Shown: positions 22,415 to 29,896, counted from the stretch's first letter. The stretch: DNA of 64,000 bases from Pseudomonadota bacterium (GCA_043825735.1 JBDRRP010000145.1:1-64000); one strand, 5' to 3'. Made by a program: numbers and translations. Notes: a model not told the origin generated them from the letters alone.

Positions 22415-23581
22415 CTATGGGAAAAGCCCACGCTGGCGGGGCCGGGGGCTGCAAAAACATAGCGATTCCGACAGAGCACCTGATCGATCCTCTGACGCCA
22501 GCCACGCCTCCCAGTCCCTGCAGTACGCCGCCTGGGGCGCCTGCGCATAATCCACCCGCCACTGCCCCGAACCGGTCCGCTCAACCTGCACGGCATCGTT
22601 GAAGATCAGCGACGTCTCCTGGGCCATCACCACTGGGAATCCGTAAGGGACGTTACGGTGTTTGGGACAGTGGTTTTCCCTGATCCGTTCGGCCAGAAAG
22701 GCCACGTGGCTGTCGAGCCGCTGGCGGTGCACCGACGCCGACAGCGCCGCCGCCCTGCCGACGGTCTGCGCGATGGTTTGCGCCAGGCCCGAATCAATCT
22801 CGTAGCCGATGCTGTTTCGGCCGGCAGCCATGGCCGCGGCAGTCGTGGTGGCGGTTCCCAGAAACGGGTCGAGCACCCGGTCTCCTTTTACCGAATACAT
22901 GGCAATGAGCCGCTGGGCGATATCGAAGGGAAATGCGCCGCTGCGCTTGCGGACATCCTTTTCGCCCAGTAACTGGCGAGATCCTTTGACGTCAAACCAC
23001 ACGTCGGAAAACCAGGCGTTTCGCTCCTCCCAGAACAGGGCGCTTTCACGCCGACGCTGCTTGTCCGGATCGGTGACGAATTCCCGTTTGGGCCCCTTTC
23101 GGAAAATGAGGATGTATTCGTGCTCCAGCGTCACGTATGCCCCGGCCGGAAGCACGCCCGAGCCCATAAATTTATTGGGTGCATTGGTCTGTTTTCGCCA
23201 GATGATCCCCGGCAACGCCATGAGGCCGACCTCTGTCAGGGCCTTCTGGATCCGCATGTGGCTGGGGTAAAGGGCGAAGTCGCCCCCCACGGTCCGGGTG
23301 GCATCTCCGATGTTGATGCAGGCAAACCCTCCCGGGACCAGCACGCGGTGGACTTCGGCCCACACCGGATCCAGACGCCGGTGCATCATCTCGAAGGCGG
23401 CATTCCCCTCGCCGCGCTGAAGGGCGGCGGCTACGGCAACATCACTACGAGAGAACAGCTCATCCCACATGGCGATCATTGGATAGGGCGGAGAGGTCAC
23501 GATCAGGTGAACGCTGCCATCGGGCACCTGGTCCATGCGCTCGGCGGTATCGAAAAAAACCTCGTGTCGGGTCTGCTGCAT
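22415..23581 (-). CDS. Orphan beta-class N4-cytosine DNA methyltransferase
   Basis: TSPPYPMIAMWD catalytic motif precedes DPFLGTATT SAM-binding motif; no adjacent restriction nuclease. Confidence 0.88.
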   Translation of the reverse strand: MQQTRHEVFFDTAERMDQVPDGSVHLIVTSPPYPMIAMWDELFSRSDVAVAAALQRGEGNAAFEMMHRRLDPVWAEVHRVLVPGGFACINIGDATRTVGGDFALYPSHMRIQKALTEVGLMALPGIIWRKQTNAPNKFMGSGVLPAGAYVTLEHEYILIFRKGPKREFVTDPDKQRRRESALFWEERNAWFSDVWFDVKGSRQLLGEKDVRKRSGAFPFDIAQRLIAMYSVKGDRVLDPFLGTATTTAAAMAAGRNSIGYEIDSGLAQTIAQTVGRAAALSASVHRQRLDSHVAFLAERIRENHCPKHRNVPYGFPVVMAQETSLIFNDAVQVERTGSGQWRVDYAQAPQAAYCRDWEAWLASEDRSGALSESLCFCSPRPRQRGLFP

Positions 23582-23885
23582 GTGATGACATCTCCAGAGA
23601 GTCTCTATGCCTCCCCGATGGGGGCGCCCTCTATCCGAGTGGGCATCCGGCCGCACAGCCGAGGCATTTTGGGCATAATCTTTTTCAAGTCTATCCGCCA
23701 TCGGCGCATGCCCGATGCTGCAGTGTGAAAAAAGCGCTAAAGTTTCGACGCTTTCGGTCGATACCTTTTTCAAAGTAGACATGCCGGCTATTGGTGCCCG
23801 TTATTTCCTGCTTCTCACCGGCAAAGTAATAGTGACGGTTGACAATATCCACATTCACCGATTACAAGCGGGTATCGAGTTCACC

Positions 23886-24930: not shown

Positions 24931-25917
24931 TCACGCCAACTCGAAGTAATACATCGGTACGCCCGGGGACTGGGCCTGGCGAGCCTTGAACGCTTCGGGG
25001 GTCTCCTGGCGAAACCCCAGAGACAGGTAGAGTTGCTGGAGTTTTATGTTCCGGGTGAGCGAAATGAACCGATGGTAGCCCTTGGTTTTCATCTCGCGGA
25101 TAAATGCATTGACGGTGAAAACCCCGACCCTCTGGTTGCGAAACTTGGTGGCGATGGCCAGCGCCCCCAACTCGACGGTATCCTGATCGACAGGCTTTTC
25201 CTCGACACATCCCACAACGATATCGTCGATGCGGGTCACATAGAAAAACGGCAGGTGTTCCAACAGGTACTGCCGGTCCCTCGGCTTGATGAGCCCCTCC
25301 TTGCTGTACTGATCCAGCATGGCCGCCACCAACGGCAGACCCGCCATCGTCAGCGGCGCAAAGGTTTCGGTGAAGTTGTTGGCGATGAGGGTGCCGGCCC
25401 CCTCGATGGTCAAGAGCTCTTTACGGAGCGTCTGTCTGCCCGCCGGCACGATGTGCACCCGGTTGTATATGCCGGCGTCTATTTTCTGGCAAATGCGATC
25501 CAAAGCGTTTCTGAAGTTCACGTTTCCCACCCACCCGGCCACGTCGCTGATGAGCTGGGTGCTGATGGCGTTGATTTTGCGCCCCTTCTGATCCTGCAGA
25601 AAGCGGCGTTCCAGAAACACGAGTTTGAACGCCGTGTCGGTGCGATCGAGTACCTGCTGGTAGAAATCGGTGTCAGGCATGAGCCGGATGATGTGCGTTT
25701 CCGGCAGTCGATCCGCCAGCCGCTGAAAATGCTTCTGGTTGGCAAACCGGTTGGACATGTTGTGGATCAGGGCCGTTTTCATCCCCTGGCGGGCCAGAAA
25801 TTTCAGGTCCGAGACGATGTGCTCGAAATGATCGCGCAGAATCCCCTCCCGGCAGGCGACAACAATGTCCTTACCGGATAGCGCTCCCGTGTAGGCCTCC
25901 AGGTGCAGTTTGCTCAT
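24931..25917 (-). CDS. ArgA-like protein: shortened amino-acid-kinase-like domain + GNAT acetyltransferase
   Basis: RVHIV..ELLTIEGAGTLI (ArgA/ArgB signature); GNAT ELGALAI..FRNQRVG. Confidence 0.75.
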   Translation of the reverse strand: MSKLHLEAYTGALSGKDIVVACREGILRDHFEHIVSDLKFLARQGMKTALIHNMSNRFANQKHFQRLADRLPETHIIRLMPDTDFYQQVLDRTDTAFKLVFLERRFLQDQKGRKINAISTQLISDVAGWVGNVNFRNALDRICQKIDAGIYNRVHIVPAGRQTLRKELLTIEGAGTLIANNFTETFAPLTMAGLPLVAAMLDQYSKEGLIKPRDRQYLLEHLPFFYVTRIDDIVVGCVEEKPVDQDTVELGALAIATKFRNQRVGVFTVNAFIREMKTKGYHRFISLTRNIKLQQLYLSLGFRQETPEAFKARQAQSPGVPMYYFELA

Positions 25918-27017
25918 TTTATTTTGGAATATCCGGGTATCAGTGTCCGTGTGGAGAGCACTCCGTTGAGCTGGCGCACGGACTCGTGAATGAACTGGGA
26001 GACCATTTCCGCGTCGGAGCTGAGCAGGTCCCGGGTGATCTCAACCTTTACCAGCAGGTCCACTTCCCCGAACACCGAATGGATTTCCTTCACCCCGTCG
26101 AGTTCGAAGAGTTTCTCGATGATGCGGTTTTCCTTTTTCGCCTGAACGTTCATGAGCACGAACGCAGTGATGCGATGCTTCATGTCCGGATACTCTGTCT
26201 TCTCCAGTTCTGCCATTTTCGCTCTGAATGCCTCCATGTCTTTGGGGATGAGCTTGTCCACGCCGATGCCGTAGGAACGCTTGCGCCCCTGGTTCCACTG
26301 ATGCCATGAAATGTAGGCGTAGAGATCGGCAATGGTTCTTTTGGGAAAAGAGACGTTCAGCCGCCCCCGCTTGATAATGGCGCACAGCGGGGTGTAGATG
26401 GTCCGGTACCAGTCGATGGCGGCGTCAGTCAAGTTTACGGGCGCGTGATCGGCCTTATGAGACAAATACGTCTGGTGCTCTGAAATCTGTTCGAGCAACC
26501 CGTCATACTGCCCGACCTCCGTCAACTCGATGTCCGCGGAAAGGCCGGTCAGGTCAAAAAATGCCGCTCGTTCCCGATACCGGACGTTTTCAAGAGAGCT
26601 GGGACTGGGAATGAACTCCACGATAGTGGCCAGGATGTCGTCGTGGCCCATCTCCTTTGCTGCGGCAATGCGATGGTTGCCGTCGAGCACATAATACTCG
26701 TCCTTGATTTGATAGAGCTTCACCGGCGGCAGGGGCTTGCCCTCGCGCATGGCGGCTTTCACCCGCTCGAGGCGCTCCGATGGCACCCGCTGCTTCAACC
26801 GGAACTGGTGATCGAAGTCCTGGTAGCGGCCGACGCTGCCGACGATCTTCTCCAGCGCCACGGTGCGGATGCCCCGGTCACGACTGTCGAATGCCTGCGC
26901 GCGCTCCTGATCCTGACTGAAGCATTTGACATCGTCCACATCGCACGGTTTGTCAGGAGCGCCGGACAGCCTTGCCAGCCACCGTTTCAGACGGGATGTC
27001 GATGATGGTGTGTCCAT
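25914..27017 (-). CDS. ParB/Srx-like domain (DUF4032-type) protein with C-terminal Lrp/AsnC ligand-binding domain
   Basis: IVGSVGRYQDFD, PPVKLY..YYVLDGNHR; C-terminal TAFVLMNV..GVKEIHSVFGEVDLLVKV..GVLSTRTLI. Confidence 0.82.
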   Translation of the reverse strand: MDTPSSTSRLKRWLARLSGAPDKPCDVDDVKCFSQDQERAQAFDSRDRGIRTVALEKIVGSVGRYQDFDHQFRLKQRVPSERLERVKAAMREGKPLPPVKLYQIKDEYYVLDGNHRIAAAKEMGHDDILATIVEFIPSPSSLENVRYRERAAFFDLTGLSADIELTEVGQYDGLLEQISEHQTYLSHKADHAPVNLTDAAIDWYRTIYTPLCAIIKRGRLNVSFPKRTIADLYAYISWHQWNQGRKRSYGIGVDKLIPKDMEAFRAKMAELEKTEYPDMKHRITAFVLMNVQAKKENRIIEKLFELDGVKEIHSVFGEVDLLVKVEITRDLLSSDAEMVSQFIHESVRQLNGVLSTRTLIPGYSKIK

Positions 27018-27582
27018 AGCAATTGATGACCTGTGTATCGCCGATCCGAGTCACGCGCGCTTCGGCTGACTCGAATTGGCGGTGAATATGGCCGTGGAGA
27101 AAATACGACGGCCGGTACCGGTCGATGAGCCGCCGGTAGGTCCTGAACCCCCGGTGGCACGGGTCCTCGGCATCGTGAATAAAGCGCGGCGGTGCGTGCG
27201 CCACCACAATATCAACGCCGCGGCCCCACCAGATCGACGGTCGCAGCGAAAACAGCCGCCAGCGCATTTCCGCCTCCGTGTACTGGTAAGGTCCGCCATT
27301 GTACCACCGAGAGCCTTCGATACCGAGGATATTCATCGCCCTGAACCGAATGAGCCTGAGGTGTATGTCCGTGCAGCCCGTCGGCGTGGTGTCTTCGTAG
27401 CGGATGTCGTGGTTGCCGCGGACATAATACAGCGGCACCTGCCAAATGGCGACAAGGGTGCTCAGGTACTCCGGCGGCAGGTCTCCGCAGGAAATGACCA
27501 TGTCCACTGCCGGAGTCGATCCCGGGCCGGTGGGGCTCGTGAGCGCCGGAGTGACGGTATCGGAGACGGCGAGTATTTTCAT
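26953..27582 (-). CDS. Calcineurin-like metallophosphoesterase
   Basis: AVSD, CGDL, RGNHD, AHAPP, HGHIH. Confidence 0.9.
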   Translation of the reverse strand: MKILAVSDTVTPALTSPTGPGSTPAVDMVISCGDLPPEYLSTLVAIWQVPLYYVRGNHDIRYEDTTPTGCTDIHLRLIRFRAMNILGIEGSRWYNGGPYQYTEAEMRWRLFSLRPSIWWGRGVDIVVAHAPPRFIHDAEDPCHRGFRTYRRLIDRYRPSYFLHGHIHRQFESAEARVTRIGDTQVINCYGHTIIDIPSETVAGKAVRRS

Positions 27583-27690
27583 ATCATGTATGGGTTGCGG
27601 CGATAGCAGATCCTGCGGTAGTGCGTTTATCAAATGCCAGCGCGCCGCATCGCATCGAAACTACGTCACAATCTTCACCAGTGCAAGCCC

Positions 27691-27729: not shown

Positions 27730-29622
27730 TTATGCGGCAATGCTGCAGGTATCGATAATATCGCGGATCCGTTTGCCCAGGGTGCTCATGCTGAAAGGCT
27801 TCTGGATAAAACCGCGGGCACCGTTGTGAAGGAGTTTTTCGGACTTGCTGTCCATTGAATAGCCGCTCGAAACGAGGACATTCACCTGAGGGTCTATCTT
27901 GAGGAGCTTTTCGAACAACGCTTCGCCAGAGAGCCCCGGCATCACCATGTCCATAATGACCAGATTGATATCGCCGGCTTTTTCCCGATAGATGTCCAGG
28001 GCTTCATGACCGTTTTGCGCCGACAGGGTCCGATAGCCGGCGGCCACGAGCATCCTCGTGGTGACATCATTGACCATCGGCTCATCGTCCACAACGAGGA
28101 TGGTTTCGCTGCCGCCGGCCCACTCGCCGGTGGGGGCGACGGCGACACTGGGAAGGGGGCCCGCCGCGGGCAGGTAAATACTGAACGTGGCCCCTTCGCC
28201 GACGATTGACTCAGCGTCGATATATCCGCCGTGACCTTTGACGATCCCGTAAGCGGATGCCAGCCCCAGGCCCGTCCCGCGCCCCATTTCCTTGGTGGTA
28301 AAAAAGGGGTCGAAAATACGGGTCAATGTTCGCCTGTCCATGCCGATACCGGTATCTCTGACGGTAAGGCGGATATAGCGGCCGGGCTTGGGGGTGTACT
28401 GTTTGCCGGATATATCCCGGTGGGAGACGACATCAGAGCCGAGATACAGGCTGCCGCCGTTGGGCATGGCGTCGGCGGCATTGACCATGAGGTTTACCAG
28501 CACCTGCTCCATCTGCCCGCCGTCTGCATGAACCGATTCGATTTCCGGATTCAGATCCAACTCGATGGCCACCCCCTTCATGGTGCGGCCGATGGTCTCA
28601 CCGGTTTTACGGATCACTTCGTTGAGATCGATCCGGTGAATTTCAAACTGCCCCTTGCGGGCGTAGCCTAGAAGTTGTCCTGTCAGTTTGGCACCGCTTT
28701 GGATGAGGCTTTCAACATTTTTAAGTTTGGCGGTCCCGGGATGGTCGTCCGGCAGTTCCGCCATGGCAAGGGAGAGATTGCCCAGCATTCCCATCATCAA
28801 GTTATTGAAATCGTGAGCGATACCGCCTGCAAGCGTGCCGATGGCTTCCATGCGCTGCGCCTGGTGGAGTTGGGCCTCCAATAGGTGACGTTCTTTTTCC
28901 CCGTTGATGCGATCGGTGATGTCGGACAGTGAGGCAACGAATGTCCGGGTTCCCGGGATTCTTCCCACCTGCACGACGATCTGTTTGGCTTTTTTCGACC
29001 GGTCGTTCAAGGTAAATTCGATTTCCGTCGGCAGGTCGGCATCAGCCAGTCGCCCTTTAAAATAAGCACTCAGACTGTCGGCTGTTTCGGTGGATACGAA
29101 ATCCGGGAGCCGTTTTCGGTGTTCGATTTCTTCACGCTGAAAACCGGTCATTTCGACAAATTTGAGGTTCACCCGTGAGATGGTCATATCCGGTTCGATG
29201 ATGATGGTAGCGGTGCCGGTATTCTCAAACACGTTGCGGTAATTGCGCTCGCTGGTGCGCAGGCGCTCAAGAGTGCGGTGGTGGTCTGCAATTTCGCGCT
29301 CCAACAGTTCGGTGGCCGCTTGCGATTTTTTTTCCGTCTGAAGCGCTTCCCACTGAATATGCCGAAGCCGGTCTTTGAGCTGCCGGAATTTTTGCTCACG
29401 GCGTAACCACGTCAAGCCGAGCAGACCACACACCAAGGGCAGGAAGAATCGCCCCGACAACAGGTCGGCGCCGGCAAGCAGCCAGCAGCCCCCGGCGACG
29501 ATCATAATACCCCCGACCACCATCGCCGCCGGCAGCCAGGTCAGCATGCCGCTTTGTCGCTTGTCGGCCGTGCCCCCCAGGGACGCGTTCTCGGATGAAA
29601 CAGATGCCTCGGTATGAATCAT
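27730..29622 (-). CDS. Membrane PAS hybrid histidine kinase with receiver domain
   Basis: Two TM segments, PAS, AHDFNN, NAADAM, DTGIGM, GTGLGL, REC VVDDE..MDMVMP; start uncertain. Confidence 0.92.
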   Translation of the reverse strand: MIHTEASVSSENASLGGTADKRQSGMLTWLPAAMVVGGIMIVAGGCWLLAGADLLSGRFFLPLVCGLLGLTWLRREQKFRQLKDRLRHIQWEALQTEKKSQAATELLEREIADHHRTLERLRTSERNYRNVFENTGTATIIIEPDMTISRVNLKFVEMTGFQREEIEHRKRLPDFVSTETADSLSAYFKGRLADADLPTEIEFTLNDRSKKAKQIVVQVGRIPGTRTFVASLSDITDRINGEKERHLLEAQLHQAQRMEAIGTLAGGIAHDFNNLMMGMLGNLSLAMAELPDDHPGTAKLKNVESLIQSGAKLTGQLLGYARKGQFEIHRIDLNEVIRKTGETIGRTMKGVAIELDLNPEIESVHADGGQMEQVLVNLMVNAADAMPNGGSLYLGSDVVSHRDISGKQYTPKPGRYIRLTVRDTGIGMDRRTLTRIFDPFFTTKEMGRGTGLGLASAYGIVKGHGGYIDAESIVGEGATFSIYLPAAGPLPSVAVAPTGEWAGGSETILVVDDEPMVNDVTTRMLVAAGYRTLSAQNGHEALDIYREKAGDINLVIMDMVMPGLSGEALFEKLLKIDPQVNVLVSSGYSMDSKSEKLLHNGARGFIQKPFSMSTLGKRIRDIIDTCSIAA

Positions 29623-29719: not shown

Positions 29720-29896
29720 TATAGCCATTGTCATAAATACGTTCCGCTTTCAGAACAACGCTGGGTGACATCGAAATCGATATCGGTATCGGTATCGGTA
29801 TCGACCTGGGAAAACATCGATTTCGATCCCGATTTCGATCCCGACCCCGATAGGATCTTGGGGATGAAACGGAACATTATTCTGACAAGCACTCTA
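29720..29896 (+). mobile_element. MITE family A with internal (ATCGGT/ATCCCG)n repeats
   Basis: 26-nt imperfect TIRs (18/26 by hand) beginning with TA; core ATCGATATCGGTATCGGTATCGG...ATCGATTTCGATCCCGATTTCGATCCCGACCCCGA. Confidence 0.7.

Follow-up and report, generated by a model that had tools for sequence, protein, structure and literature searches.

What does a cell do with a small phosphoesterase, a ParB/Srx-fold protein that carries an amino-acid-type ligand-binding domain, and an acetyltransferase, when the three are encoded end to end? The question is raised by a locus in a 64,000-nucleotide stretch of DNA from a Pseudomonadota bacterium (GCA_043825735.1 JBDRRP010000145.1:1-64000), hereafter the window. 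The locus encodes a small calcineurin-like metallophosphoesterase (MPE; 26953..27582, 209 residues from the ATG at 27582), a 367-residue protein of three domains, ParB/Srx fold, DUF4032-like and RAM (ParB-RAM; 25914..27017), and a short ArgA-like acetyltransferase (24931..25917, 328 residues); these and all other genes and domains of the window named below lie on the minus strand. The original prediction, made from the sequence alone, treated the three genes as one module. We find that the MPE and ParB-RAM genes form a genuine and strongly conserved functional pair, and that the more exotic three-gene reading does not survive.

Linkage of the MPE and ParB-RAM genes

A search with the ParB-RAM protein returned 2434 relatives at E <= 0.001. 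A scan of species genomes gave 535 confirmed ParB-RAM relatives among the 599 pattern matches listed, and 80 loci were kept. An MPE homologue was found directly upstream of the ParB-RAM gene in 77 of these 80 loci; it was not seen in L024, which leaves no room upstream, nor in L014 and L019, where room is present. Metagenomic loci were taken from a further set of 80, fetched with a DUF4032-type alignment, in which at least 750 nucleotides (nt) counted as room upstream. All 21 RAM-type loci with room carried the MPE (20 adjacent, 1 fused). Among 151 genomes evenly drawn from the order, 51 held the MPE and 50 the ParB-RAM gene; both were present in 49 of the 52 genomes with either. The three genomes with one gene only were G131 and G137, where it lies at a contig end, and G100, which is 75% complete. 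Where both genes were present they were adjacent on one contig in 46 of 49 genomes, and in G031 and G141 the pair is broken at contig ends. The coupling of the phosphoesterase to the ParB/Srx-AsnC gene, claimed in the original prediction, is thus supported in all three samples.

The two genes are also found joined in frame, at loci L059, L129 and L130 and in a 582-residue frame of G079:C21, and the 460-residue library protein P0280 holds both the MPE and the ParB-fold parts. Across the order and into spirochaetes the two genes occur as single copies with 50-70% identity, and the neighbourhood outside the pair differs between loci. Three further fusion candidates were rejected: the MPE of L051 (a 536-residue open reading frame, ORF) ends at its own stop, and L001 and L002 merely have long upstream open frames. 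In one genome (G001:C2:25787-27451) both pair genes carry several stop codons and give split matches, which suggests a cassette in decay.

The three minus-strand genes and the 4-nt overlap described in the original prediction are present in the ORF listing and in the sequence, which reads ATGA where the ParB-RAM stop joins the ArgA-like start. The 65-nt overlap claimed between MPE and ParB-RAM requires that ParB-RAM start at its first ATG, 27017; the 341-residue database version (P0001) implies a GTG start shifted inward by 26 codons, and the two genes would then be separated by 13 nt. Both arrangements are found among relatives. For the MPE, the ATG at 27582 is the start common to 75 relatives, and the open frame extends back to a TTG at 27633 (26953..27633, 226 residues). 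The base composition of the region showed no anomaly.

Domains of the pair and the wider ParB-DUF4032 core

The ParB/Srx-fold domain, predicted to bind nucleotides, spans about residues 44-140 (26598..26888) by structure alignment. An AlphaFold2 model of the ParB-RAM protein, built on 57 sequences, reached a predicted local distance difference test (pLDDT) score of 86. Compared by VIA-align, residues 46-144 matched Arabidopsis sulfiredoxin (Srx) 6ky4 with Z 9.3 (82 residues aligned, root-mean-square deviation 3.2), human Srx with Z 8.2, SerK 5x0b with Z 7.9, PadC and KorB with Z 7.5 each and SbnI with Z 7.0. Foldseek agrees with this assignment and has Noc, ParB and PadC chains among its matches. 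The fold proposed in the original prediction is therefore borne out by the very comparison it suggested, with SerK, SbnI and Srx, and the two motifs it named are present: GSVGR at residues 60-64 (26826-26840) and the P-motif DGNHR at residues 112-116 (26670-26684). Residues G60, D112, G113 and R116 are invariant in the 57 sequences. DGNHR aligns to GERR of B. subtilis ParB, to DGHHR of SerK (1vk1, 5x0b) and to DGVHR of SbnI, and it contains Box II, GxxR, as G113-N-H-R116. By its sequence, the P-motif is of the DGxHR type of SerK, SbnI and Srx and not the GERR type of the cytidine triphosphate (CTP) clamps.

In sulfiredoxin the catalytic cysteine sits in a G-C-H-R motif; read against that motif, its position is taken by Asn114 in the ParB-RAM protein, and the columns of the ParB-RAM alignment (A1) that are invariant or nearly so include no cysteine. 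The best non-RAM match of the protein in NCBIfam is SerK, and the faint SerK and ParB signals there are confined to residues 76-136. Passages of the survey by Kaljevic et al. (bioRxiv 10.1101/2025.10.10.680097) describe Box II as nearly invariant among binders of nucleoside triphosphates (NTPs) and the fold of SerK, SbnI and Srx as an ATP-binding module, report that a tested SerK-like protein bound CTP, and state that the nucleotide specificity of the fold is not readable from sequence. For this last reason we name no particular nucleotide for the ParB-RAM protein.

The all-helical middle domain (about residues 141-275; 26193..26597) is DUF4032-like by hhalign. Its alignment to DUF4032-bearing relatives had a probability of 99.9 and E 2.6e-34, which supports the assignment, and the match falls on the stretch of the relative P0279 where Pfam assigns DUF4032. 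Its conserved residues include W203, R227, D231 and H239. Modelled alone, the domain reached a pLDDT of 91.5. Against solved folds its best Z was 4.6, with none at Z >= 5, and Foldseek returned no match at E <= 0.001. Because there is no solved match we give this domain no fold name, neither HTH (helix-turn-helix) nor the C-terminal domain of SerK and SbnI.

The RAM domain (Lrp/AsnC ligand-binding domain; about residues 281-362, 25932..26177) is matched by AsnC_trans_reg (PF01037) over residues 288-360 at E 1.3e-7, with 31.8 bits against a cut-off of 25. Superposing model residues 278-367 on Lrp/AsnC and stand-alone RAM proteins gave Z 11-12 (11.5-11.9 for the RAM domain; 11.9 to 1ri7 and 2cg4), and the domain is 42% identical to the stand-alone RAM protein 2e1a. 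These matches confirm the ligand-binding domain that the original prediction had placed in this protein. RAM domains bind amino acids and drive oligomerisation in Lrp/AsnC proteins. Full-length Lrp/AsnC regulator models match the ParB-RAM protein only at residues 278-360, and it has no N-terminal winged HTH; no HTH family was matched anywhere in the protein in the Pfam and NCBIfam scans, as had been foreseen. Alignments place a family-specific six-residue insert, relative to stand-alone RAM proteins, within residues 329-337. This stretch is invariant in the family (R329-D-L-L, S334-D, E337), and the insert may reshape the ligand or oligomer interface.

With an NTP domain first, a helical domain in the centre and an oligomerisation domain at the C-terminus, the protein follows the layout of ParB, and Lrp/AsnC transcription factors typically carry RAM domains. 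ParB-RAM could accordingly be a nucleotide-switched, amino-acid-responsive DNA-binding regulator related to ParB, Noc, KorB and VirB, in which the N-terminal domain is an NTP gate, DUF4032 the DNA binder and RAM a dimerisation or ligand module, with the MPE as an accessory. Source annotations and one Atlas cluster name do label relatives 'transcriptional regulator', and Noc, ParB and PadC chains stand in the Foldseek list. We nevertheless regard a regulator of this kind as unlikely. The absence of an HTH family and of any solved counterpart for the middle domain are weak negatives, but the canonical ParB model TIGR00180 gave 15.1 bits against a cut-off of 58.45, and the near-obligate MPE partner and the fusions would go unexplained. 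The P-motif is DGNHR and not GERR, so that the Glu of GERR, which is needed for CTP hydrolysis by ParB, is absent. Because of the DGxHR motif, the lack of any HTH match and the presence of an enzyme as partner, we place the protein more readily with the enzymes of this fold (SerK, SbnI, Srx) than with its DNA clamps.

The partner enzyme matches Pfam Metallophos at E 3.4e-10, with 41.1 bits against a cut-off of 21.5. Calcineurin-like enzymes hold their metals with the motif set DxH, GD, GNH(D/E), H and GHxH. In 37 aligned sequences (alignment A4) and in 75 relatives the invariant residues of the MPE are D8, C32-G-D34, G56-N-H-D59, H129, D137, D140, H143 and H163-G-H165, and H167 is present in at least 90% of sequences. 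Apart from motif I, the conserved set of metal ligands argues for a working metal site. Two cysteines adjoin the metal motifs, C32 before the GD and C142, nearly invariant, before H143; possible roles for them are additional metal binding or redox switching. A sequence search with the MPE matched no solved structure, and its profile gave weak matches to MPPED2 (E 9.2e-4) and to the RNA lariat debranching enzyme Dbr1 (E 2.4e-3).

Searching a representative library with the ParB-RAM protein gave 2882 proteins at E <= 0.001, most of which share only residues ~30-260. DUF4032 was the common Pfam label among 44 relatives scanned, and the extra domains found in these were Usp (N- or C-terminal), 4Fe-4S (Fer4), Zn-ribbon and MPE; a Pfam scan of 14 long relatives (560-820 residues) for more partner domains found DUF4032 and Usp only. 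RAM-less ParB-DUF4032 loci with room upstream had the MPE in 24 of 38 cases (23 adjacent, 1 fused), and 2 more had it nearby. Since RAM-less relatives keep the MPE and have other sensors fused to them, the core is MPE plus ParB/Srx-DUF4032 with an exchangeable sensor: this is the unit under selection, and RAM is one of several plug-in sensors. A second, RAM-less MPE and ParB-DUF4032 pair, about 32% identical to that of the window, is found in addition to the RAM-type pair in two genomes of the order (G018:C30, L102 3869-5537; G041:C3, L101) and has the look of an ancient duplication of the entire cassette. In P0255, a 508-residue PAS-HAMP protein of the representative library, the C-terminal end matches residues 192-365 of the ParB-RAM protein, so the late DUF4032-like plus RAM piece can also be a building block of other signalling proteins.

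The ArgA-like acetyltransferase and the flanking genes

The third gene encodes a degenerate, shortened domain of the amino-acid-kinase (AAK) type (~25348-25917) and a GNAT domain (~24988-25338; Pfam E 8.4e-10). The ArgA model TIGR01890 gave 68.1 bits against a cut-off of 202.85 and aligned over model positions 195-408 only. An Atlas model of the protein superposed on classical ArgA clusters of 437-443 residues with template modelling (TM) scores of 0.72 and 0.67. On the strength of the GNAT match, the partial TIGR01890 match and the Atlas scores, the shortened AAK-like domain plus GNAT described in the original prediction is supported. The protein belongs to a family of ~330 residues, with 737 matches. 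Of the profile searches proposed for the window proteins, AsnC_trans_reg, Metallophos and GNAT found their targets; in our scan ParB_N (at E <= 0.1) and DUF4032 did not match the ParB-RAM protein, nor AA_kinase the ArgA-like protein.

According to passages of PMC4490483, N-acetylglutamate synthase (NAGS) and arginine-sensitive N-acetylglutamate kinase (NAGK) share an arginine-site motif, E-(L/I)-(F/M)-(T/S)-x-x-G-x-G-T, and ngNAGS binds its product via Arg316, Arg425 and Ser427. This motif is kept here as E167-L-L-T-I-E-G-A-G-T176 (25390-25419), with Leu at the F/M position; E167, L168, E172, G173 and G175 are invariant in 25 ArgA-like sequences. R213 aligns to the residue mapped to Arg316 of ngNAGS, assuming a 20-residue tag in chain 2r8v, and the invariant R313...S317 falls outside the aligned stretch and so is not matched to Arg425 and Ser427. 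By these residues the gene probably encodes a shortened, arginine-sensitive NAGS. An ArgB-like gene and ArgJ, the latter over its cut-off, are likewise present in the genome, and because of ArgJ the ArgA-like gene is not the sole route to N-acetylglutamate. Of the possibility, raised at the outset, that it is simply the genome's only N-acetylglutamate synthase, one half fits, in that the gene resembles an ordinary NAGS, and the other does not, in that a second route is there.

Is this enzyme part of the cassette? No ArgA-like gene was found within 6 kb either side of the pair in any of the 80 species-genome loci. In the order sample it was found in 24 of 151 genomes, of which 17 also hold ParB-RAM and 7 are genomes where no ParB-RAM was found. 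The two genes are adjacent in 2 of the 17, this genome and the same-genus G062, and lie on different contigs in 15. The flanks of the ArgA-like gene in 10 order-sample loci had no conserved neighbour. Adjacency may recur in four metagenome contigs (9930, 3161, 3811 and 10170 nt), as read from same-sized contigs for both matches and not from sequence, which suggests that it extends to a few near relatives with 73-89% identity.

These counts bear on the proposal that all three genes form one unit, with a kinase-like protein as writer, the phosphoesterase as eraser and the acetyltransferase all acting on a common small molecule under two amino-acid-sensing domains. The 4-nt start/stop overlap, its setting repeated in G062, the four metagenome contigs that probably share the adjacency, and the presence of ParB-RAM in 17 of 24 ArgA-like genomes would all suit it. 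We hold such a unit to be very unlikely, as the ArgA-like gene is missing from the surroundings of the pair at every one of the 80 loci, sits on another contig in 15 of 17 genomes, occurs without any ParB-RAM found in 7 and keeps no conserved flanks, and the residues it conserves are those to be expected in an ordinary NAGS under arginine control. The acetyltransferase thus drops out of the module drawn in the original prediction: it stands next to the pair in one genus only.

Upstream of the pair lies a gene for a hybrid PAS-HisKA-HATPase-receiver histidine kinase (27730..29622, by Pfam). It ends 96-147 nt upstream of the MPE start; being this close on the same strand, it implies that the cassette may be read through from the kinase gene. 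Of 81 loci, 20 have kinase-like ORFs close to the pair, at varying positions; the histidine kinase is not a conserved partner of the pair, though it is possibly co-transcribed with it here. The gap upstream of the kinase gene (29770-29851) contains tandem repeats of a hexamer, ATCGAT x5.8, and a dodecamer, CGATTTCGATCC x2.2. On the other side of the locus an N6/N4 DNA methylase is encoded at 22415-23782 (E 1.7e-37), and no restriction partner for it was found among the nearby ORFs inspected.

Proposed mechanism and comparison with known systems

We tentatively propose, with a confidence that falls just short of even, that the pair works as an amino-acid-gated, NTP-using ParB/Srx enzyme or switch that is reset by its phosphoesterase. 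The ParB/Srx-DUF4032 unit would bind an NTP or a nucleoside diphosphate (NDP), and the bound unit would either transfer phosphate to a small molecule or a protein side chain or take up a nucleotide-locked state. An amino acid bound to the RAM oligomer would gate this nucleotide step. The MPE would then remove the phosphate, or degrade the nucleotide ligand or product, and so reset the system. Other lineages would run the same core with a Usp or 4Fe-4S sensor, or with none. The ArgA-like gene, placed behind the cassette in this genus alone, might be co-expressed with it and lies outside the conserved system. Prediction of a complex between the MPE and the ParB-RAM protein (alignments A1 and A4) gave a score of 0.00, which we weigh neither way.

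Several observations weigh against this proposal. In the linkage data, L014 and L019 have room upstream of ParB-RAM yet no MPE, 12 of the 38 RAM-less loci lack one in their vicinity, and in G074, an assembly of 7 contigs, the MPE and ParB-RAM genes lie on different contigs. Among the profile models, Pfam ParB_N (PF02195) did not match the window protein at E <= 0.1 (the identical cluster P0001 and nearly all relatives do have it as a precomputed assignment), the TIGR00180 score is far below its cut-off, and the SerK model NF053625 gave 16.1 bits against a cut-off of 380 (E 0.0046) over residues 105-136 only. Pfam DUF4032 (PF13224) matched neither the protein nor anything else in its genome at E <= 0.01, and none of 201 genomes of the phylum; this model is too narrow for the lineage. 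In the MPE, motif I keeps D8, and its +2 position is variable and not His. Finally, ParB-RAM occurs in 17 of 24 genomes with the ArgA-like gene and in 33 of 127 others, a co-occurrence above background among kin that are not independent, and in the window the ArgA-like gene is coupled to the cassette by start and stop. Because of this co-occurrence and coupling, a functional tie of the ArgA-like gene to the pair is possible in this genus.

Two further accounts fare worse. As a 'ParB-like nuclease' (the name some sources give to relatives) with an Mre11/SbcD-like phosphoesterase nuclease, the pair could be a nucleic-acid-targeting or defence module. Among PADLOC models, the candidate-defence one PDC-S10 (PDLC04908) picks up the MPE at E 1.5e-12, the lariat debranching enzyme is among its nearest solved relatives, and the flanks vary as they do in mobile cassettes. 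We find this highly improbable: the ParB-RAM protein matches no PADLOC model, no gene for defence or mobility turns up repeatedly next to the pair, both are single-copy genes that are well conserved (50-70% identical) across the order and into spirochaetes with no base-composition anomaly, and the fused sensors RAM, Usp and Fer4 speak of metabolic sensing. It is just as improbable that the pair is a free-serine kinase with a phosphoserine phosphatase, balancing serine and O-phosphoserine under amino-acid feedback, since, for all that the fold and DGxHR resemble SerK and SbnI, that SerK is the best non-RAM NCBIfam match and that a phosphatase would suit such chemistry, the SerK score is far under its cut-off, the second domain is unlike any solved chain, SerK and SbnI included, and the pair is too patchy (50 of 151 genomes) for a core biosynthetic step.

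The gated and reset ParB/Srx enzyme or switch also has a bolder version, which we consider rather unlikely. Here the cassette would be a widespread and so far unrecognised bacterial phospho-signalling or metabolite-phosphorylation cycle with a ParB-fold writer, a private MPE eraser and plug-in sensors, which in this genus would be wired to arginine metabolism through the translationally coupled short NAGS. The sensors of such a cycle could report amino acids (RAM), nucleotides (Usp) and redox state (4Fe-4S).

The ParB fold has lately been recast as a general NTP-binding module well beyond chromosome segregation, and the family described here, thousands strong, ties this fold to a private phosphoesterase and to interchangeable metabolite sensors. 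It offers a clear candidate, open to experiment, for a new class of enzyme or switch among sulfate reducers, spirochaetes and Chloroflexota, with cultured carriers in Desulfosarcina alkanivorans PL12 (L033) and Desulfoferrobacter suflitae DRH4 (L046). The acetyltransferase is no guide to the chemistry of the cassette, which corrects the first reading of the locus. We found no paper on the MPE plus ParB/Srx-DUF4032-RAM architecture or on DUF4032, in line with the earlier statement that no characterised pathway has such an architecture. The main text of the survey by Kaljevic et al. (bioRxiv 10.1101/2025.10.10.680097) does not contain AsnC, Lrp, DUF4032, phosphoesterase or Usp, and its supplements may list the fusion.

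Compared with known systems, the finding is a variant within the ParB/Srx world and not a new kind of system. The MPE is closest among solved structures, by profile, to MPPED2 (PDB 3rl4), of the class III-type metallophosphodiesterases, through its C-terminal half including GHxH; unlike MPPED2 it lacks the motif I His and has the conserved Cys32 and Cys142, and the match is very weak and the protein itself only ~200 residues long. The ArgA-like protein resembles classical NAGS ArgA (N. gonorrhoeae, PDB 2r8v; partly after PMC4490483) in its AAK plus N-acetyltransferase (NAT) layout, its GNAT domain (aligned at E 2.6e-13), its arginine-site motif and the correspondence of R213 to Arg316, and differs in an AAK-like domain about 100 residues shorter, with no AA_kinase match. 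With stand-alone RAM and Lrp/AsnC proteins (2e1a, 2zbc, 1ri7, 2cg4) ParB-RAM shares its C-terminal 80 residues, at Z 11-12 and up to 42% identity; in contrast to Lrp/AsnC proteins it has no N-terminal HTH, carries the invariant six-residue insert (RDLLSS region) and is fused to an enzyme-like module. ParB, Noc, KorB, VirB and PadC share with it the fold, the GxxR Box II and the habit of fusing a nucleotide module to lineage-specific domains, of which the archaeal CBS fusions, as presented in passages of bioRxiv 10.1101/2025.10.10.680097, are an analogous case with a metabolite sensor; unlike these ParB-CTPase-fold switches, ParB-RAM lacks GERR and the ParB C-terminal domain and gives no HTH match. 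SerK (Thermococcus), SbnI (Staphylococcus) and sulfiredoxin resemble it in the N-terminal fold (Z 7.0-9.3) and in showing neither HTH nor ParA partner, and SerK and SbnI share the D-G-x-H-R P-motif. ParB-RAM departs from them in model scores far below cut-offs, in a DUF4032-like second domain with no solved counterpart and, from sulfiredoxin, in the Asn that stands in place of the catalytic Cys of the G-C-H-R motif; to the shared fold it adds a RAM domain and an obligate MPE partner.

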